Assembly (NCBI GenBank): GCA_038735675.1
Contig: JAVYNJ010000015.1
Span: 1-13,788, forward strand
DNA: 13,788 nucleotides
Direction: 5' to 3'
Source: Nanopusillaceae archaeon
Lineage (GTDB): Archaea; Nanobdellota; Nanobdellia; Nanobdellales; Nanobdellaceae
A program made the translations under genes and the position numbers. The notes under the pieces are model-generated. The model was not told the DNA's origin. It did not search any database and saw only the letters and a program-made list of their open reading frames with translations. Positions 2,979 through 13,037 of this stretch are shown one piece after another; within the stretch, counting starts at the first letter, position 1; each line of letters opens with the position of its first letter.

Positions 2979-3212
2979 TTATTTAGCCTCTTTTTCTTCT
3001 TCCTTAAGCTCCTTTTCTATTTCCGCTAGTTCTTTTTCTAATTTTTTATCTTCATATCCTATCCATAATAATAATAAACCAATTAACAATATAATTGGTC
3101 CTATTGCCCCTTTTAACACAAATATTACTTCCTCTAACCAATAATATATCCCTAATATACCTAATAGAGTTAATACTATTCCTATTATGACTTCGAGCAA
3201 CCATTCTTTCAT
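2979..3212 (-). CDS. Small membrane protein (two predicted TM helices plus a Lys/Glu-rich C-terminal tail), function unknown
   Basis: 77 aa with two clean hydrophobic segments (LLEVIIGIVLTLLGILGIYYW and GAIGPIILLIGLLLLWIGY) followed by KKLEKELAEIEKELKEEEKEAK. It starts with ATG and ends 10 nt upstream of the rpl15e start. I prefer it over two overlapping low-complexity ORFs (2962..3144 +, 3052..3264 -). Confidence 0.5.
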   Translation of the reverse strand: MKEWLLEVIIGIVLTLLGILGIYYWLEEVIFVLKGAIGPIILLIGLLLLWIGYEDKKLEKELAEIEKELKEEEKEAK

Positions 3213-3241: not shown

Positions 3242-4132
3242 ATGATTGATTTAGATAGTTTCATAAAAGAATTAATAAACCAAATTCCTGAAGGGAGAAT
3301 TTCTACATTTAAATGTATTTCAGATGCTTTAGGGAGTCATTATGCAATAAAATATGTTGCTTCTATATATAAAAAACTTGAATGTCCGTGGTGGAGAGTT
3401 GTTAATGAATCTGGAATTGTAAATGATGATTTTCAAAAGAAAAAGCTAATTGAAGAAGGAATAGAGATTATAAATAATAAAATAGATATAAAAAAATATC
3501 TTTTTAAAGATTTTAAAATAAAAATAAAACCACTAGAATATTTAAGAAAGATTCAAATTGAGATGTCTAAAAAGATTTCTTTAAATGACGAGTTTGAAAA
3601 AATAGAATATATTGGTGGCGTTGATATTGGATATAAAAATAATGTTGCAAAAGTTGTTTATGTAATATTAGACAAAAATCTTATTTTATTGAAAAAGTAT
3701 ATTTTTATAGAAAAGATAGAGTTTCCATATATTCCTACGTTTTTATCTTTTAGAGAAGGAGAACCGATAATTAAAACATTTAATAAAATCGATAAAATTG
3801 ATATTTTATTTGTAAATGGTTTTGGAATAGCCCATCCTGTTAAAATGGGATTGGCAAGTTGGATTGGAGTAAAATTAGATATACCAACAATTGGTATAAC
3901 AAAATCTCTTTTATATGGAAAGGTAGTAGAAGATAAAATAATTGATGAAAAAAGTAACGAAATTTTAGGATATGTTATTAGAAAGTTTAATAAAAAAATT
4001 TATACATCTCCTGGAAACAAAGTTTCGTTAAAAACTTGTAAAGAATTATCAGAAAGATTTTGGATTAAAGGAAATTATCCAGAGCCAATAAGACTTGCTG
4101 ATGAGATTAGTAAAAAAATATCTATTCCTTAA
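3242..4132 (+). CDS. nfi: Fusion protein: N-terminal MGMT/ATL-like DNA-binding domain (no nucleophilic Cys) joined to C-terminal endonuclease V
   Basis: Residues ~1-75 follow the MGMT C-domain pattern (IPEGRISTF..ISDALG...A.KYVA....CPWWRVVNESG...KK.LIEEGI), with PWWRV (nt 3386..3400) where alkyltransferases have PCHRV and ATLs have PWHRV. Residues ~97-296 carry the EndoV motifs GGVDIGY, FPYIPTFLSFREGEP, GFGIAHP, DIPTIGITKS, SPG and YPEPIRLAD. Confidence 0.85.
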   Translation: MIDLDSFIKELINQIPEGRISTFKCISDALGSHYAIKYVASIYKKLECPWWRVVNESGIVNDDFQKKKLIEEGIEIINNKIDIKKYLFKDFKIKIKPLEYLRKIQIEMSKKISLNDEFEKIEYIGGVDIGYKNNVAKVVYVILDKNLILLKKYIFIEKIEFPYIPTFLSFREGEPIIKTFNKIDKIDILFVNGFGIAHPVKMGLASWIGVKLDIPTIGITKSLLYGKVVEDKIIDEKSNEILGYVIRKFNKKIYTSPGNKVSLKTCKELSERFWIKGNYPEPIRLADEISKKISIP

Positions 4133-4556: not shown

Positions 4557-5753
4557 ATGTTAATTCATAAAGAAATCTTAGATAACGGAATAGAATTATA
4601 TTCTATTCCAATAAAAGGAGTAAATACAATAGGAATTGCTATTGTAGTAAATATAGGAAGTATATATGAAGAATCTGAATATAGAGGAATTTCGCATTTT
4701 TTAGAACATATGATGTTCAAATCAAATAAAAAATATAGTTATGAGCAAATAGATCTTGGGTTAGAATTAAACGGAGGGATTGCAAATGGTTTTACTTCAA
4801 AGGACTATACAGAATATGTTGTAGAATGTTCAAAAGGCGGGTTTGAAAATATTATTGATATTTTGTATTCGATGTTTGAAAATAAAGAATATAAAGAAGA
4901 AGAATTCGAAAATGAAAAAAAAGTAATTATGAGTGAAATAGAAAGAATAAACAACGATCCTGAGAGTAAATTATCTATATTAGTTAAAAAAAGCGTTTTT
5001 GGAGATTCAGATTATGGAGATGATATTGGGGGGACTAGAGAGACAATTCAAAATATAACAAAAGATATTTTAGAAGAATTTAAAGAGAAATATTATACTC
5101 CAAAAAATATGGCAATCTTTTTAGAAGGAAATGTTACTAAAAAAGATATAGAAATTGTTAAAAAATATTTTTCAAAATTAGAGGGAGATAAACCAAAATT
5201 AAAAAAACCTTCTATAGGAAAAGGAAGAGACATAACAGAATATATGGATACGAAAAATCAAATATATTATTCTTTAGGAATAGATTTTAACATAGATGAC
5301 TTCTTTGATCTCTTAACTTTATCTGTATTATTATCTGGAGGAATGTCCTCTAAAACATTTCAAATATTCAGAAATAAATATGGAATAGGGTATCATATTG
5401 ATTTAGGATTTGCAGCTCAGTATCCCGATAAAGTTATATATAATTTAGAGATTCCGGGATTTGAAACTGAAAAAGAAAAAGTTTTGTATAATGCCATAGA
5501 AGATTTTGTAAATTCTAAAGTAGATGAAACCTATATTAATGGAAGACTTAAAAGATATGAATTAAAATTTGAAAAAAAGAGAAAGGATGTATTTGAAAGA
5601 CTTTTAGTAGATCCAATTGGATATAAAAGGTTTAGAGTAATATATGACAACATTTTAGAGATTGTAAAAGAAAAATCAAAAGATTTTGAAAGTTTAAGAA
5701 AAAAATTAGAAAAATTATTGGATGGTTATGAAGTATGGATAAGACAGAAATAA
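4557..5753 (+). CDS. M16 (pitrilysin/insulinase) family zinc peptidase
   Basis: 398 aa. The inverted zinc motif HFLEH is at aa 47-51, and the downstream EKKVIMSEIER places Glu at aa 120 and 127 at the spacing expected for the third zinc ligand region. Confidence 0.8.
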   Translation: MLIHKEILDNGIELYSIPIKGVNTIGIAIVVNIGSIYEESEYRGISHFLEHMMFKSNKKYSYEQIDLGLELNGGIANGFTSKDYTEYVVECSKGGFENIIDILYSMFENKEYKEEEFENEKKVIMSEIERINNDPESKLSILVKKSVFGDSDYGDDIGGTRETIQNITKDILEEFKEKYYTPKNMAIFLEGNVTKKDIEIVKKYFSKLEGDKPKLKKPSIGKGRDITEYMDTKNQIYYSLGIDFNIDDFFDLLTLSVLLSGGMSSKTFQIFRNKYGIGYHIDLGFAAQYPDKVIYNLEIPGFETEKEKVLYNAIEDFVNSKVDETYINGRLKRYELKFEKKRKDVFERLLVDPIGYKRFRVIYDNILEIVKEKSKDFESLRKKLEKLLDGYEVWIRQK

Positions 5754-7635: not shown

Positions 7636-10221
7636 TTATTTAAAATCTTTAATATTTTTAAAAAATTTCTTATATATTAATCTTGCAGAATATTTATCCA
7701 AATATTCATTAAAATTACCACACTTTGAAGAAAATACGCATTTTGGACAGCCATCTAAACATTTACAACTAATTAAAGATTTCTTAGATTCTAATATTAG
7801 TTTTTCTATATTTTCAAATATTATTTCTGCCAATCCTACTCCATTTTCAAATCCTTCATATATAAAAATTGTTGGTTTTTGTGTTTGCGAATGAATAGGA
7901 TATGAAAAACCTCCCAATTCTCTTGAATCTATGTAAGTGACTATTGGAGATATTTTAATAATATTGTGTTCTATTGCATGTAATCCAGATCTAAAAGATG
8001 TCTGAGAATCAATAAGCTTTTTAATATAAAAAGCTAGCTTTTTATCTTTAATTCTAAGATCTAACAAAAATTTTTCTACGATTTCCTTAATTTTTCTACT
8101 AGCTAATCCCCTATATTTTTCATAAAAATAATCTTTAACTACTGTAGTCGAAAAATTAAACAAATCTTCAAAGGAAATGGGATATTTCTTTTCAGAAATA
8201 ATTTTTGAAATTTTTTTCTTTAGAGTTTCAAGATATTCTCTTTCTATAGTTTCGTATTCCTTTGGTATTTCTATCCAAATTGCTTTAGTTATAAATTTTC
8301 TTTTAATTGTATTATCATAATATATTATATTCTGCATATATTCTTCTCCATATTTTATTTTTTCTACGTATCCTAAATATTCTCTATTAACTTCTATAAT
8401 ACCTAAGTTTATTTTCCAATCTCCAAATTTTTTTTCTTTAAGTTTTTCTATTATTTTAACCTCTTCATTGTAAATTGGTTCCGTTTCTATACCAGATTCT
8501 TCTTTTTGAACTATAACAAAATTTATATTTCCTATATTCACTAAAGATACAGATCTATATGCTTTTCCTAAGGAATAATAAACCATTCCTGGTAATAAAT
8601 ATTCATAAAATGCAATTTCATCTACTTCTTCTATTATTTTTCCTTTAGATTTTAACATATTCGCTATTTTAAAAGCAGTCTCTTCTCTTTTAATATTTTT
8701 AACAATTTCATAATCTGATATATCTATTAAATAATAAATTTTATCAGATATGTTTCTTAATCCAGAATATATTACTTTTCTTATAGGAATTACATATTCC
8801 TTTCCAAACAAACTATCTTTAATTATTTTTATATAATTTTTTTCTATTAATCTTTTTAGTATTTCTTTATCTTTTTCTTCAATAAGATCTAAAGGTAGTC
8901 TTCCAAATTCGTGAATCATGTAAAGTAAATGTTTTTCCCTTATTTTTTCATTATCCAAATTAATCGGAAGTTCTTCAATATCGTTTTTTTCTATTTTTTC
9001 AAACAATTCTTCAAAATTTGATGAGTAATATAAATCTAATGCATCTTTTTTGAATATTATTATATTTAGTCCATTAGATGTTCTACCAGATCTTCCAAAT
9101 CTTTGAATTAAAGAAAATATACCATCTCTAGGTATTCCATAATTTGCTACTGCAGAAACATCTCCAATATCTATTCCAAGCTCTAAGGCTGAAGTAGTTA
9201 TTAAAATTCTATATTCATTATTTTTAAATTTCTTCTCTATTTCTTTTCTAATATCTTTTAAATAACTTGCTTTATATGTAAAAACCAGATTACTTTTTTC
9301 AAGATCCTCTATTAGCATTTTATATCTCTCTACTCCTTTCTTTGATTCTAAAAAAACTAAAGATTTTATATCATTTTCTAAAAGTATTCTTATTAATCTT
9401 TTTAATACTACCTTTGGTCCTATGTTTTTAGTATCTATTCCGATAACCCATCTATCATATCTTTTACTATAATCCTCGCTTATAGTATAAAAATCTAAGC
9501 TAAATAATTTTTTAGCAAATTCTTTTGGATTTTTTAAAGTTGCTGATAAAGCTAGAAACTTAAAAGAATTGTTTTTATATAAATATTTCAATAAATAAAT
9601 TAATCTTTTAAAAACATAAGCAGAATTTGTACCAAAAACTCCACGATAAGAATGTAATTCGTCAACAACTATTAAATCTAGATTTCTAAAAAAATAGTAC
9701 ATTTTTCCATGATTTTTTAATAAAAACAAATGTAAATTATCTATGGTAGTTAATATAACATTGGGTTTATCTTTTATCAGCTTTTCTTTTTCTTTATAAG
9801 TTAAATCTCCTAAAAGAATTCCAAATTTTAAATTTATCTTTTTTTCAAAGATTTCATTAAATTGATTTATTAAAGATTGGAATTTCTCAAATTGATCATA
9901 CAATAGTGCTCTTAATGGATAAATTAAAAGATAGGTTTTATTTTGATTTTTTAAATAATTATCCATTATATATAACCTAAAAATATGAGATTTTCCAGAG
10001 GCTGTTGGTGTTGTTACAACTACGTTTTTTCCATTGTATAATAATTCTAAAGTTTCTTTTTGATGTTTATATAATTTTATATTAATTTTATTCAAAAATT
10101 TGTTTATTTCTTCATTAAAAAACTTAAAATCATCAAAAATTGGATCTTTTTTATTTATTTTTTTTATTCCTACAATTAGGTCTCCGAATTCTTTCTTCAA
10201 AATTTCAACAATATTTTCCAC
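7636..10221 (-). CDS. DExH-box superfamily 2 helicase with a C-terminal DUF1998/MZB zinc-binding module (YprA/MrfA/Hrq1-like)
   Basis: 861 aa with LYKHQ, Walker A TPTASGKS (nt 9988..10011), motif II VVDELH, SAT, TSALELGIDIG and motif VI QRFGRSGR. The C-terminal CKCLDGCPKCVFSSKCGNFNEYLDK (nt 7720..7767) matches the DUF1998 signature C..GC..C....CGN.N..LDK. The start codon is GTG (10221..10219); an in-frame TAA lies 6 codons upstream and there is no earlier ATG. Confidence 0.85.
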   Translation of the reverse strand: MENIVEILKKEFGDLIVGIKKINKKDPIFDDFKFFNEEINKFLNKINIKLYKHQKETLELLYNGKNVVVTTPTASGKSHIFRLYIMDNYLKNQNKTYLLIYPLRALLYDQFEKFQSLINQFNEIFEKKINLKFGILLGDLTYKEKEKLIKDKPNVILTTIDNLHLFLLKNHGKMYYFFRNLDLIVVDELHSYRGVFGTNSAYVFKRLIYLLKYLYKNNSFKFLALSATLKNPKEFAKKLFSLDFYTISEDYSKRYDRWVIGIDTKNIGPKVVLKRLIRILLENDIKSLVFLESKKGVERYKMLIEDLEKSNLVFTYKASYLKDIRKEIEKKFKNNEYRILITTSALELGIDIGDVSAVANYGIPRDGIFSLIQRFGRSGRTSNGLNIIIFKKDALDLYYSSNFEELFEKIEKNDIEELPINLDNEKIREKHLLYMIHEFGRLPLDLIEEKDKEILKRLIEKNYIKIIKDSLFGKEYVIPIRKVIYSGLRNISDKIYYLIDISDYEIVKNIKREETAFKIANMLKSKGKIIEEVDEIAFYEYLLPGMVYYSLGKAYRSVSLVNIGNINFVIVQKEESGIETEPIYNEEVKIIEKLKEKKFGDWKINLGIIEVNREYLGYVEKIKYGEEYMQNIIYYDNTIKRKFITKAIWIEIPKEYETIEREYLETLKKKISKIISEKKYPISFEDLFNFSTTVVKDYFYEKYRGLASRKIKEIVEKFLLDLRIKDKKLAFYIKKLIDSQTSFRSGLHAIEHNIIKISPIVTYIDSRELGGFSYPIHSQTQKPTIFIYEGFENGVGLAEIIFENIEKLILESKKSLISCKCLDGCPKCVFSSKCGNFNEYLDKYSARLIYKKFFKNIKDFK

Positions 10222-11281: not shown

Positions 11282-11746
11282 ATGATAGAAATTTTAGGAA
11301 TTGGTATAAAATTAGATGTAGATAATAAAGAAGTTGAATTAGAAAAAAACAAAAATATATTAAATATTAAAGATAAAATATTTGTTTCTTCACAGGCATA
11401 TGATGTTTATAATAAAAATTGGAAGTGTAGATTATTTTTTAATGATAAAATAAAATTTATTAGTGGGCATGATATTTATCTTTATGACTTTGATTATTTA
11501 AATCAAAAAGATAAAATATTTTCAAGATCAGAAATAATATATGTTGGTTTAAATTTAAAAGAAGAAAAAGAAATTGATTTAATTCAAGACAAATATTATA
11601 TATTGTCTCCGTCTAGTAAAATAAAAATAGGAAAGGGAAAAATTGGAAGTGATTTAAAAGAAACAATAATAGATACTGAAAATGTAATAAGAAATATATT
11701 AAGAGCTATAGACGGTTTATTAATAAGAAAAATACCAAAAATATAA
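11282..11746 (+). CDS. Hypothetical protein
   Basis: 154 aa with an ATG start, filling the gap between neighbours exactly (its stop abuts the enolase stop). I recognise no motif. The call rests on ORF length, genome compactness and the absence of a competing ORF. Confidence 0.5.
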   Translation: MIEILGIGIKLDVDNKEVELEKNKNILNIKDKIFVSSQAYDVYNKNWKCRLFFNDKIKFISGHDIYLYDFDYLNQKDKIFSRSEIIYVGLNLKEEKEIDLIQDKYYILSPSSKIKIGKGKIGSDLKETIIDTENVIRNILRAIDGLLIRKIPKI

Positions 11747-12925
11747 TTAAGATCCTATCTTCTCATATATTCTTAATAATTCATTAAGTTTACTAATTCT
11801 TTCTCCACCAATAATTCCAAATTTTACATATGGTACTTCAAATGCAACTGCTAAATGGGCTATAATATTGCTTTCTGTTTCTCCAGACCTATGAGAAAAT
11901 ATTGGAATAATATCGTTTTTCTTACAGAATTCTATAGCTTCAATTGTTCTAATAATTGAACCTGCTTGATCTGGCTTTATTATTACTGCTTTAATAGAAT
12001 TTTGTTTTATTGCTTTTTCTATTCTTTCTATATTTGTAACAGTTAAATCATCTCCAGCTACTATTGCTCTTGTTTCCTTATTTATTTCCGAAAATCCTTC
12101 AAAATCATCTTCATGTAAAGGATCTTCAATATAAAAGAGATTATAATCTTTAATTATATCTAAAACTGTTCTTATGAACTCTTCTTTACTATATTTTTTA
12201 TTTTCAAACACATAAACACTGTTATTAAAAATATGTGTTGCTGCTAAATCTATACCAATGTCAATTTTTATAGAATATTCTTTTTCTAAACTTTCAGATA
12301 AATTTCTTAAAACATTTAATAAAGTATGTGTTTTTAAAGAAGTTGTCCATGCTCCTTCATCATTTTTACCATACATAAATTTTTCATCTAATAATTCTAA
12401 TCTTTCCCCTAAAAGTTTATGATAATATGATGCTAAAAATATTGCCACTTTTAAATTGTTAATTCGAGGGGAAATTAAATATTCTTGTACTGTTGTACTT
12501 CTCCACTTTGCATGAGCTCCACCACCTACAACATTTGCTAATATTCTAATATTTTTTATATTCGGTTTTTTATTAAAAAATGAATAAATTGGTTCATTAT
12601 AATGAAAAGACCATGCCCTTAATATTGCATACTCTATTGCCAATATGAGATTGCTTCCATATTTTTTAATTCCACCAATTAATTCTAGATCATTTTCAAA
12701 ATTTTTTAAATCTCCCAAAGTTTGGATGTCATATGTTTTTAATAAATCTACTAGTTCGGAATTAAATAATTTTATCGCTTCCTCTACATCTATTTTATTT
12801 GCTTCATAAGATCCTTTACTTGCTCCAGAAGGAACTGACTCTGAAAAACCATTTATTTCAACTTCAATTGCTGGATCTCCCCTAGAATTTAAAACAATTC
12901 TTGCTTTAGCATCAACAATCCTCAT
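11747..12925 (-). CDS. eno: Enolase (phosphopyruvate hydratase), short form
   Basis: 392 aa. Enolase signatures include the N-terminal ARIVLNSRGDPAIEVEI and SGASKGSYEA, then VQEYLISP, NDEGAW, IEDPLHEDDFEGF, VAGDDLTVTN, IKPDQAGSI, SHRSGETE and ISKLNELLRI. Confidence 0.9.
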   Translation of the reverse strand: MRIVDAKARIVLNSRGDPAIEVEINGFSESVPSGASKGSYEANKIDVEEAIKLFNSELVDLLKTYDIQTLGDLKNFENDLELIGGIKKYGSNLILAIEYAILRAWSFHYNEPIYSFFNKKPNIKNIRILANVVGGGAHAKWRSTTVQEYLISPRINNLKVAIFLASYYHKLLGERLELLDEKFMYGKNDEGAWTTSLKTHTLLNVLRNLSESLEKEYSIKIDIGIDLAATHIFNNSVYVFENKKYSKEEFIRTVLDIIKDYNLFYIEDPLHEDDFEGFSEINKETRAIVAGDDLTVTNIERIEKAIKQNSIKAVIIKPDQAGSIIRTIEAIEFCKKNDIIPIFSHRSGETESNIIAHLAVAFEVPYVKFGIIGGERISKLNELLRIYEKIGS

Positions 12926-12965
12926 AAATTTATTTCTATTTTTTAGATAATTTAAATTATCTAAG

Positions 12966-13037
12966 TGGGCCCGGGGGGAATTGAACCCCCGACCTCCCGG
13001 TTATCAGCCGGGCGCTCCGCCACTGAGCCACGGGCCC
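12966..13037 (-). tRNA. tRNA-Ile (anticodon GAU), 72 nt, no intron, CCA not encoded
   Basis: The manual cloverleaf is GGGCCCG-UG-GCUC-AGUGGCG-GAGC-G-CCCGG-CU GAU AA-CCGGG-AGGUC-GGGGG-UUCAAUU-CCCCC-CGGGCCC-A. 53 of 72 nt are G/C. Confidence 0.93.

Follow-up and report, generated by a model that had tools for sequence, protein, structure and literature searches.

A Nanopusillaceae endonuclease V with an N-terminal alkyltransferase-like domain and a conserved asparagine in its metal site

The 13,788-nt stretch of DNA analysed here (contig JAVYNJ010000015.1, termed the window) carries a complete open reading frame at positions 3242..4132 of the plus strand. The source is a tiny hot-spring archaeon of the Nanopusillaceae (Nanoarchaeota), a thermophilic and genome-reduced lineage. 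Genome size is 0.67–0.77 Mb with a G+C content of ~25% (22%–28% in the window). The closest homologue (P0001) shows 97% identity and is labelled as a Nanopusillaceae endonuclease V (EndoV). The features of the locus are given below; Tma refers to the Thermotoga maritima EndoV, and the Nano clade to 34 Nanoarchaeota orthologues that diverge to ~50% identity, with columns of the N-terminal domain counted in 32–33 of them. P0026 is the orthologue from Nanobdella aerobiophila.

3242..4132, plus strand: alkyltransferase-like (ATL-like) domain fused to EndoV, complete open reading frame of 296 aa and a stop codon, ATG start
3242..3475, plus strand: N-terminal AGT-C/ATL-like helix-turn-helix domain, aa 1–78 (PF01035, phmmer, Foldseek)
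3308..3310, plus strand: F23, in the column of a conserved Tyr (family alignments; Nano clade F 26, Y 6)
3350..3352, plus strand: K37, in the column of the Arg finger, RAVG motif (family alignment; Nano clade K 27, R 5)
3383..3400, plus strand: C48-P49-W50-W51-R52-V53, counterpart of PCHRV, W50 taking the place of the nucleophile and W51 that of the His
3476..3559, plus strand: linker and first EndoV helix, aa 79–106, with conserved F88, F91, L98, R102 and Q105
3560..4102, plus strand: EndoV domain, aa 107–287, RNase H-like fold (PF04493, 2w35, Foldseek)
3623..3625, plus strand: D128, equivalent to Tma D43, metal ligand (alignment to 2w35; 34/34 in the Nano clade)
3725..3736, plus strand: P162-Y163-I164-P165, strand-separating wedge (columns invariant or nearly so)
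3755..3757, plus strand: E172, equivalent to Tma E89 (alignment to 2w35; 34/34 in the Nano clade)
3815..3817, plus strand: N192 (codon AAT), equivalent to Tma D110 (alignment to 2w35; Asn in 34/34 of the Nano clade)
3839..3841, plus strand: V200, in the Tma R118 column, the positive charge being lost together with the D110 to Asn change (family alignment)
3902..3904, plus strand: K221, equivalent to Tma K139, contact to the scissile/5′ phosphate (alignment to 2w35; Nano clade K 30, R 4)
4016..4018, plus strand: N259, in the Tma H214 column, which is variable across the family (alignment to 2w35 and family alignment)

A preliminary description of this DNA had proposed a two-domain protein, alkyltransferase-like and EndoV, and this architecture is borne out by Pfam, where both profiles score above threshold. 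The N-terminal region, for which a profile check had been suggested, matches PF01035 (DNA_binding_1) at aa 10–62 with 30.3 bits (gathering cut-off 27). PF04493 (Endonuclease_5) matches aa 107–287 (E = 1.3e-47, 162.5 bits, gathering cut-off 23.4) and is covered at profile positions 2–197 of 198. Scores at the NCBIfam equivalog level are below the cut-offs, i.e. 145.5 bits for NF041102 (cut-off 300) and 140.8 bits for NF008629 (cut-off 230). PF01035, a conserved linker (LF-DF...PL) and PF04493 are present on one polypeptide, which is the arrangement of an AGT/ATL-EndoV fusion, and there are dozens of fused homologues in archaea and bacteria. Such fusions are widespread and are found in Thermoplasmatota, Bipolaricaulota, Planctomycetota and other groups.

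The AlphaFold2 model of the 296-aa protein (pLDDT 97.1, pTM 0.91) confidently predicts both domains as one rigid body. In Foldseek comparisons the EndoV fold of the model has a TM score of 0.80–0.85 to the T. maritima and E. coli EndoV structures (0.80–0.84 for T. maritima), and the N-terminal domain has a TM score of 0.73–0.74 to Atl1 (3gva) and Vibrio Atl (2kif). For the EndoV half, a structural comparison with the T. maritima enzyme had been proposed earlier as a check, and the model agrees with it. Phmmer gives the same two relatives for the N-terminal domain (2kif, E = 2.5e-7; 3gva, E = 1.6e-4). The best explanation of the gene is a Nanopusillaceae EndoV with an N-terminal non-catalytic domain derived from an ATL.

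In EndoV, the textbook enzyme for starting the repair of deaminated adenine, two residues bind the catalytic Mg2+ directly, one of them D110. Residues were mapped by a phmmer alignment to the solved T. maritima EndoV 2w35 (E = 1e-29), which shows ~36% identity across the whole EndoV domain; the best-scoring PDB sequence is an engineered D110N mutant of this same enzyme (6ozf). The alignment agrees with the earlier observation that the first Asp, the Glu and the PYIP wedge are retained, with D128 at D43, E172 at E89 and residues 162–165 on the wedge. The register that had placed Asn in both the D110 and H214 columns is also right, as the alignment does not put Asp or His there. The set of metal-binding carboxylates D43/E89/D110 is therefore incomplete, N192 being in the column of D110, which in canonical EndoV binds Mg2+ directly (PMC4650699).

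The residues of the wedge and of the hypoxanthine pocket are conserved (P162, Y163, I164, P165, G193, G195, H198, G203, G218 and L224), the pocket being composed of Gly, Leu and His residues (PMC4650699). As judged from these columns, the predicted lesion-recognition apparatus of the EndoV half is shown to be whole, i.e. the PYIP wedge, the Gly/Leu/His pocket, D128, E172 and K221.

The two Asn residues are of different significance. Homologues from three pooled searches were classed by the D110 column into 296 Asp-type and 160 Asn-type sequences, a ratio that does not represent the family frequency since two of the searches were seeded with Asn-type queries. The H214 column of the 296 Asp-type homologues has His in 185, Asn in 80 and Ser in 18, and Tyr also occurs; in the E. 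coli EndoV, which is active, the residue is Asp (PMC4650699). N259 was thus rejected as an active-site anomaly. A D-E-N-N metal site had originally been proposed: its D-E-N part (D128, E172, N192) stands, and the final Asn is an ordinary residue in a variable column.

In the Nano clade the columns of D128, Y163, E172 and H198 are each invariant (34/34), and the N192 column has Asn in all 34 sequences, never Ser, Ala or Gly. Conservation within the clade reaches 90% or more at ~90 positions, and the open reading frame is intact in the 34 orthologues. The least saturated pair has a dN/dS ratio of 0.13 in the EndoV half and of 0.18 in the N-terminal domain. Both halves are under purifying selection. 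The invariance of N192, without drift, points to a functional residue and not to relaxed constraint. A survey of orthologues for conservation of the two unusual motifs had been recommended, and the outcome is full conservation for N192 and partial for PWWRV, with W50 found in 30/33 and W51 in 28/33. None of the homologue matches was labelled Nanoarchaeum equitans, although the cluster entries carried no organism names.

An Asp to Asn change requires a single G to A substitution, and the N192 codon is AAT both in the window and in L001–L004. In a window as poor in G+C as this one, G to A pressure (at ~25% G+C) might have turned GAT into AAT in a decaying gene, with the protein heading for loss. 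This is hardly credible, since the D128 codon is still GAT, the reading frames are intact with the low dN/dS values given above, Asn is invariant amid so many conserved positions, and the same change is seen in unrelated lineages. Pseudogenisation is effectively refuted by the clade columns and the dN/dS ratios.

A Trp at the Cys position is the hallmark of ATL proteins, which hand alkyl lesions to NER, and the Tyr of the AGT/ATL domain promotes nucleotide flipping, in which the Arg finger also takes part. The origin of the N-terminal domain was judged from the family alignment together with the PDB matches. The acceptor Cys of the AGT/MGMT PCHR motif is absent, the motif reading P-W-W-R. In the column of W50, the Cys-bearing fusion homologues have the Cys of their PCHRV motif, and Vibrio Atl (PWFRV) and S. 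pombe Atl1 (PWHRV) have Trp. Assignment of a Trp to the alkyltransferase Cys position, made at first from the letters, is thereby upheld, as is that of a Lys (K37) to the Arg-finger position. The register of K37 is that of the family alignment, the HMMER pairwise alignment to vpAtl having a gap at this point. C48 was considered as a displaced nucleophile and was rejected, as this residue is not conserved among orthologues.

We take the Tyr column to be that of hAGT Y114 and Atl1 Y25, and the Arg-finger column that of hAGT R128 and Atl1 R39. The family alignment also shows that two loops of the AGT/ATL domain, which flank the PCHR motif, are shortened by 4 and 8 residues. Compared with the Cys-type fusions, the loop after the conserved Gly is shorter by 8 residues, and the difference is 5 residues for Vibrio Atl and 7 for Atl1. 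In Atl1 the alkyl group is recognised by R69, a residue of this loop. Alkyl-lesion sensing by the ATL-like domain is doubtful because, besides the lost Cys, there are the Tyr to Phe and Arg to Lys changes and the two loop deletions. On this sequence evidence, the ATL part in the Nano clade looks too degenerate for such a function.

These features bear on a function raised in the preliminary description, i.e. an alkyl-lesion-directed nicking enzyme, in which the ATL-like domain would flip O6-alkylguanine and the tethered EndoV would incise, mimicking an ATL with an NER endonuclease. The review PMC10779285 puts this proposal forward for archaeal ATL-EndoV fusions. The idea is in keeping with the Trp at the Cys position, as in the PWFRV of Vibrio Atl, and with the finding that the nearest solved relatives of the N-terminal domain, in sequence and in fold, are true ATLs. 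The proposal is nevertheless improbable for this protein, where the flipping Tyr is Phe, the Arg finger is Lys and the loops are short. In addition, several Asn-type relatives are without the PCHR half, so that half is dispensable, and the fully intact hypoxanthine pocket of EndoV points to a deaminated base as substrate.

The gene order around the locus is SufC, L15e, a small open reading frame, the ATL-EndoV gene, aIF5A, an M16 peptidase, Nth, a histone, PCNA and a helicase. Four Nanopusillaceae genomes share this order, and it is not seen in other lineages. Proximity to Nth, PCNA and a repair helicase had been pointed out earlier, but the order represents family-wide collinearity of housekeeping genes and not a repair operon. 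A functional link to these three genes was rejected, since ribosomal, Suf, aIF5A and peptidase genes lie among them in the order that the four genomes have in common.

Comparison of Asn-type and Asp-type homologues shows that the change at D110 does not occur by itself. D43 is kept in 158/158 and E89 in 157/160 of the Asn-type sequences. The K139 column has Lys in all 296 Asp-type sequences, as against 50/160 Asn-type, and Arg is found at the R118 column in 205/296 Asp-type as against 27/160 Asn-type. A clade with Asn at D110 and Gln at K139 has strictly His in the H214 column, which looks like compensation rather than decay.

The fused domain follows a similar pattern. A Cys-bearing AGT domain accompanies 119/183 of the Asp-type EndoV domains and 1/48 of the Asn-type, the sole exception being P0244. 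In ~7 separate lineages the AGT-like domain joined to an Asn-type EndoV is Cys-less or truncated, and in several Asn-type relatives the whole PCHR half of the AGT-like domain has been lost. As the Asn-type almost never occurs with a Cys-bearing AGT domain, both chemistries may have been abandoned together. A neighbour-joining tree (~200 columns, distance-based, no support values) was used only to determine if Asn arose more than once; the parsimony count of changes at the D110 column is 29, which is an overestimate. By its distribution on the tree, Asn at this column is judged to have arisen more than once. It recurs in many archaeal EndoV lineages.

We give about an even chance to the reading that the protein is a still-functional inosine nicking enzyme, slower and more lesion-specific than canonical EndoV, with an accessory DNA-binding domain. 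The protein would scan DNA, flip a deaminated purine (hypoxanthine) into the EndoV pocket, and nick the second phosphodiester bond 3′ of the lesion via a remodelled D-E-N metal site. The carbonyl oxygen of Asn192 would still ligate the metal. A weaker hold on the metal would give a slower enzyme, probably favouring Mn2+ and with little non-specific nuclease activity. The N-terminal domain, devoid of the Cys, the Tyr and the lesion-pocket loop, would provide an additional hold on DNA through its helix-turn-helix, packed rigidly on the nuclease, and would not sense O6-alkylguanine.

By their PDB titles, the engineered E89Q and D110N forms of T. maritima EndoV were crystallised with inosine-containing DNA. 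Because these proteins form DNA complexes, binding alone should not need the acids at E89 and D110, and the invariance of D43 and E89 in the Asn-type lineages argues that the metal site is still in use. A mutant panel that included the active-site positions D43, E89, D110 and H214, the D110 substitutions not being named, was assayed with Mn2+ and an excess of enzyme (PMC3025561). Strong nicking specific for inosine persisted in all mutants except D43A, D43C and D43H, whereas the non-specific nuclease activity was lost in those of the active site (PMC3025561).

Several observations count against a nicking enzyme. One is the engineered Tma D110N structure 6ozf, titled as a complex with an inosine-containing 12mer; from its title this is taken to be a trap of uncleaved substrate, and D110N is taken to strongly impair cleavage in the T. 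maritima background. Others are that D110 directly coordinates Mg2+, that the constraint on the catalytic Lys is altered in the Asn-type lineages, with Arg in its place in 4/34 of the Nano clade, and that an Asn-type EndoV is so rarely joined to a Cys-bearing AGT domain.

The same observations lead to a possible but tentative alternative, a non-cleaving lesion reader in which alkyl transfer and phosphodiester hydrolysis are both off. The sensor with reduced nuclease chemistry of the preliminary description is close to this, and is one possible reading among others. A reader would bind hypoxanthine, or another lesion or structure, by means of the intact pocket and wedge, and would mark the site or pass it to another nuclease. 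The 6ozf complex, read as binding without cutting, is consistent with this, as are the replacement of the catalytic Lys in 110/160 Asn-type sequences (0/296 Asp-type), the parallel loss of charge at the R118 column, and the coupling, P0244 excepted, to Cys-less or truncated AGT-like domains. Against a reader, D43 and E89 are essentially invariant in the Asn-type although the E89Q and D110N mutants of T. maritima still bind DNA; Asn, and in the other clade Gln at K139, are specifically conserved and do not drift; and the window protein retains K221. Further, a reader in so small a genome would depend on a second nuclease as partner, for which there is no evident candidate beside the gene.

A third possibility is that the protein is directed to RNA, recognising inosine in RNA (e.g. 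tRNA) as eukaryotic EndoV does, with the altered metal site reflecting a change of substrate. Eukaryotic EndoV homologues are inosine-specific ribonucleases, as indicated by structures 6ozj–6ozs and by published abstracts. An RNA-directed function is very improbable here, as the sequence offers no direct evidence for it, the mouse and Ciona enzymes keep the Asp, the nearest relatives in structure and sequence are bacterial DNA enzymes, the fused domain is a DNA-binding helix-turn-helix, and there is no link to RNA metabolism within the window.

If a D-E-N site is tolerated, as the nicking enzyme would require, then the metal mechanism of EndoV would have to be rethought, and naturally high-specificity inosine nickases could become available for mutation scanning or inosine mapping. 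If otherwise, there would be a family of natural dead-nuclease lesion readers. In either case a whole Nanoarchaeota lineage keeps Asn at D110 under purifying selection, and the change recurs in archaea with replacement of the catalytic Lys. More speculatively, the Asn-type EndoV proteins of DPANN and other archaea, among them the Nanoarchaeota fusion and a large single-domain clade with Asn at D110 and K139 replaced by Gln, Ser or Thr, could be a functional class that is widespread but undescribed. Its members may have become readers of deaminated or damaged bases that need a metal but do not cleave, or nucleases whose one-metal or transition-metal site is built differently, and the fused AGT domain would have lost its alkyl transfer along with this change. 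A literature search found no published description of the single-domain Asn-type group. The Asp to Asn change, conserved and recurrent, was apparently not previously known, while the fusion itself was.

An ATL-type AGT-EndoV fusion, which the preliminary description had set apart from the Ferroplasma protein, is already on record: the review PMC10779285 credits the archaeal ATL-EndoV fusion to Tubbs et al. 2009, cites its discussion by Pegg 2011 and treats the function as a proposal. The fusion noted by Tubbs et al. 2009, like the protein described here, joins a Cys-less alkyltransferase-like domain to EndoV in archaea, and by that account the window protein is very probably a member or a close relative of it. 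The review does not mention an Asp to Asn change or further degeneration of the ATL part. The present findings bear on the long-standing speculation about ATL-EndoV fusions as alkyl-lesion-directed enzymes.

The AGTendoV of Ferroplasma acidarmanus (Kanugula et al. 2005) has both alkyl-transfer and EndoV activities as described in the review PMC10779285. The architecture is the same, with the C-terminal half of an alkyltransferase (PF01035) placed N-terminal to a full EndoV domain. The window protein differs from the Cys-type fusions sampled, which have Asp at the D110 column, in having Trp for Cys, Phe for Tyr, two loop deletions and Asn; Ferroplasma is compared by its description in the review.

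Atl1 and the Atl of Vibrio parahaemolyticus are the best matches in sequence and fold for aa 8–89. Both share with the window protein the pattern P-W-aromatic/His-R-V-(V/I)-N without a nucleophile. Stand-alone ATLs, however, are free proteins (~110 aa) in which the Tyr and the Arg finger are retained and the lesion-binding loop is longer, in contrast to the Phe, Lys and short loop of the fused domain.

The window protein shares with T. maritima EndoV the fold, the wedge, the pocket, D43, E89 and K139. It differs in the lost charge at R118, the Asn at the H214 column and the added N-terminal domain, and whereas the Asn110 of T. maritima was engineered, here Asn is the conserved natural state. 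The single-domain Asn-type proteins of DPANN (e.g. P0144 and P0186, labelled Aenigmarchaeota) share the Asn at D110, invariant D43 and E89 and a hydrophobic R118 column. These proteins have no N-terminal domain, K139 is replaced by Gln (or Ser, Thr, Ala or Gly) and H214 is strictly His, whereas the window protein keeps the Lys and has Asn at H214.

The fusion gene lies in archaeal DNA with a G+C content of 22–28% in the window:

3242–4132, + strand, open reading frame of 296 aa.

The closest relatives of its product are labelled endonuclease V (EndoV) and are found in Nanopusillaceae, Candidatus Nanopusillus, Nanoarchaeota archaeon YN1 and Nanobdella aerobiophila (97% to 55% identity, full length), which assigns the window to a member of the Nanopusillaceae (Nanoarchaeota, DPANN). 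Pfam searches show Endonuclease_5 at aa positions 107–287 (E-value = 1.3e-47) and the MGMT DNA-binding domain PF01035 at positions 10–62, the latter with 30.3 bits, narrowly over the curated cut-off of 27. In a search of solved structures, 194 residues of the EndoV half align with T. maritima EndoV (E-value about 1e-29). The residue pairs are D128 with D43, E172 with E89, N192 with D110, K221 with K139 and N259 with H214, and the PYIP sequence aligns on the T. maritima wedge. The best-scoring PDB sequence for this half is 6ozf, an engineered D110N mutant. The N-terminal 100 aa alone match best to Vibrio parahaemolyticus Atl (2kif, 2.5e-7) and S. pombe Atl1 (3gva, 1.6e-4); real alkyltransferases rank after these, with E-values > 0.02. 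An AlphaFold2 model from 74 homologues (pLDDT 97.1, pTM 0.91) gave Foldseek TM scores of 0.80–0.85 between the EndoV half and the T. maritima and E. coli enzymes, and of 0.73–0.74 between the N-domain and Atl1 and Vibrio Atl. The fusion of an AGT/ATL fold with EndoV proposed in the preliminary description is thus confirmed, and its coordinates are exact: C-P-W-W-R-V at nt 3383–3400, N192 at 3815–3817 and N259 at 4016–4018.

Two Asn residues at the metal site had also been considered unusual. Key columns were tabulated in three sets: 120 listed homologues, 80 loci taken from species genomes in GTDB, and a pool of 463 non-identical sequences. The window protein does have Asn, not Asp or His, at both the D110 and H214 columns, but N259 is ordinary, because His is not conserved at the H214 column. 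In the 296 sequences that carry Asp at D110 (Asp-type), this column is H in 185, N in 80, S in 18 and another residue in a few; it is Ser in Archaeoglobus-type proteins and Asp in the E. coli enzyme (PMC4650699). N192 is the real active-site deviation. In the product complex, D43 and D110 coordinate Mg2+ directly (PMC4650699).

In a Nanoarchaeota clade of 34 sequences, with identity down to about 50%, N192, D128 and E172 are each present in 34/34. K221 is Lys in 30 and Arg in 4, 33/34 have V, F, I, A, T or Y at the R118 column, and the N259 position varies (N 25, H 8, Y 1). N192 is encoded by AAT both in the window and in four species genomes. The least saturated pair gives dN/dS values of 0.13 (EndoV half) and 0.18 (N-domain); together with the invariant N192, D128 and E172 this argues against gene decay, a most improbable reading. 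By these measures the gene is maintained and not decaying.

The pooled set of 463 includes 296 Asp-type and 160 Asn-type sequences (Asn at D110). Because Asn-type queries were used to seed two of the searches, these counts are skewed to Asn-type; the conditional patterns are independent of this bias.

Residues at key columns (T. maritima numbering) in the pooled set
K139 kept as Lys: Asp-type 296/296; Asn-type 50/160 (Q 67, R 15, S 10, T 7, A 5, G 4, I 2)
D43 kept: Asp-type 296/296; Asn-type 158/158
E89 kept: Asp-type 296/296; Asn-type 157/160
R118 column Arg: Asp-type 205/296; Asn-type 27/160

Fusions with Cys at the AGT position number 119 in the Asp-type and 1 in the Asn-type; those with a non-Cys or missing residue number 64 and 47. 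A crude NJ tree shows repeated origins of Asn.

PF01035–EndoV fusions are common, in archaea (Thermoplasmatota, the DHVE2 group/Aciduliprofundum, Methanomassiliicoccales-like, Bathyarchaeia, Nitrososphaerota) and in other groups (Bipolaricaulota/Acetothermia, Fraserbacteria, Planctomycetota, uncultured Thermotogae). The majority combine a PCHRV, PCYRV or PCYKV motif with Asp at D110; several lineages have another residue (W, S, T, V, F, A or others) in place of the Cys. Asn at D110 is also found outside Nanoarchaeota, e.g. in a Bathyarchaeota fusion (locus L008) with PVHRV and a K139 to R change. In six Asn-type fusions of 260–288 aa (P0039, P0259, P0296, P0303, P0356 and locus L028, 8001–8813) the N-domain is reduced to its helix-turn-helix half, the PCHR motif and all that is C-terminal to it in the domain being gone. 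P0244 is the sole Asn-type fusion retaining PCHRV. A large clade of single-domain EndoV proteins, some labelled Aenigmarchaeota, combines Asn at D110 with Gln (or Ser, Thr, Ala or Gly) at K139 (P0071, P0084, P0086, P0089, P0102 and P0129–P0242). The clade strictly conserves D43, E89 and the His at H214, and it contains a few scattered Asp+Lys members.

The window protein may be an attenuated, lesion-specific inosine 3′-endonuclease with a putative accessory helix-turn-helix domain, a reading held at about even confidence and favoured over a lesion reader that has lost cleavage, which is possible but rather unlikely. Such a reader would fit the T. maritima D110N protein, deposited in the PDB as a complex with inosine-containing DNA and read as binding without cleavage. 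It would also fit the K139 constraint, relaxed or altered in Asn-type lineages only, and the coupling of Asn-type sites to Cys-less or truncated AGT domains. Against it, D43 and E89 are essentially invariant across Asn-type lineages; since E89Q and D110N mutants of T. maritima EndoV retain inosine-DNA binding (PDB titles), this invariance is counted for a remodelled but working site. Asn at D110 and Gln at K139 are specifically conserved, with no drift; strict His at H214 exactly where Lys is lost looks like compensation; and loss of charge at D110 is paired with loss at R118 and/or K139, which leaves the net charge at the site unchanged. In addition, Mi et al. assayed T. maritima mutants at D43, E89, D110 and H214 with Mn2+ and enzyme excess, and all but D43A, D43C and D43H gave a strong inosine-specific nick with non-specific nuclease activity minimised, the D110 substitutions being unnamed (PMC3025561).

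Among Asn-type proteins, the window protein falls into the least altered class, in which Lys is retained, and its host lineage has genomes of 0.67–0.77 Mb. The cultured relatives are thermophiles. With a small genome and fast hypoxanthine formation at high temperature, a partner-dependent sensor is less parsimonious, and for these reasons the attenuated endonuclease is favoured.

The N-domain carries P-W-W-R-V-V-N, which is an ATL-type motif because Vibrio Atl has PWFRVIN and Atl1 has PWHRVIN; W50 matches their Trp, in agreement with the earlier assignment of Trp to the reactive-Cys position. W50 is conserved in 30/33 and W51 in 28/33 clade members, as are R52, V53, V54, N55 and G58; conservation of C48 is absent from the family alignment. 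The Tyr column (VSTYG in Cys-type fusions, i.e. those with the PCHR Cys) is Phe in the window protein (clade F 26, Y 6). Lys at the arginine-finger column (ARAVG), noted previously, is borne out (clade K 27, R 5). Compared with Cys-type fusions, the domain lacks 4 residues ahead of the motif (NP-x loop) and 8 more past the conserved S-D-G (alkyl-pocket loop); this second loop is shorter by 5 residues than in Vibrio Atl and by 7 than in Atl1. The AlphaFold2 model, a rigid two-domain structure, retains the helix-turn-helix. The domain is more reduced than an ATL, and it is inferred to be an ATL-derived DNA-binding module with a lesion pocket that is probably non-functional. Nicking directed by alkyl lesions is improbable, and a role on RNA marginally more so.

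Besides a small membrane ORF, the fusion gene has as neighbours the genes for aIF5A, an M16 peptidase, an HhH-GPD (Nth-like) glycosylase, a histone, PCNA and a DEAD-box helicase that carries an MrfA zinc-binding domain. All four Nanopusillaceae species genomes share the order SufC, L15e, small ORF, fusion gene, aIF5A, M16, Nth, histone, PCNA, helicase, and among the homologous loci compared this order was not found outside the family. Nth, PCNA and the helicase are therefore present as previously noted, but a repair module was rejected: translation, Fe-S and chromatin genes are mixed in, and the order reflects the collinearity of small genomes. Other features are:

2979–3212, − strand, 77-aa ORF, hydrophobic N-terminus and Glu/Lys-rich tail
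7636–10221, − strand, DEAD-box helicase, 861 aa, C-terminal MrfA zinc-binding domain PF09369
10309–10382, − strand, tRNA-Asn (GTT), ARAGORN and Rfam
11282–11746, + strand, 154-aa ORF between a class I methyltransferase and the 392-aa ORF
11747–12925, − strand, 392-aa ORF
12965–13037, − strand, tRNA-Ile (GAT), ARAGORN and Rfam

The 77-aa ORF and the fusion gene are divergent, with 29 nt between them; the ORF is conserved in loci L001 and L003 and has a sub-threshold DUF373 match only; the 154-aa ORF has no Pfam match at E ≤ 0.001. The genes are tightly packed: the fusion gene shares its last 11 nt (4122–4132) with the 3′ end of aIF5A, which is convergent with it, and there is an overlap of 19 nt between the M16 peptidase and Nth-like genes (5735–5753) and of 8 nt between the two Suf-like ORFs (1754–1761). 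PCNA is followed immediately by the helicase on the same strand, a pair conserved in four Nanopusillaceae genomes. In Nanopusillaceae MAG KM4331-08 (L001, 9619–12013) two tandem copies of the M16 peptidase stand beside the fusion gene, with 56% and 37% identity to the window's single copy. An HhH-GPD (Nth-like) gene is found < 8 kb from an AGT/ATL–EndoV fusion in five non-Nanoarchaeota loci (L017, L052, L058, L061, L080).

In the literature, with limited access to subscription papers, no mention was found of a natural Asn at the D110 position, of Asn-type EndoV in DPANN archaea or of K139 covariation. The conserved, recurrent D-E-N site and its coupling to AGT-domain degeneration appear to be new. 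The fusion architecture is already known, since the AGT–EndoV fusion of Ferroplasma acidarmanus has been characterised as bifunctional and an archaeal ATL–EndoV fusion was reported by Tubbs et al. 2009 (ref. 20 in the review), according to a review (PMC10779285). There, the EndoV part of the ATL–EndoV fusion is speculated to play the part of the NER nuclease XPG, with experiments awaited.
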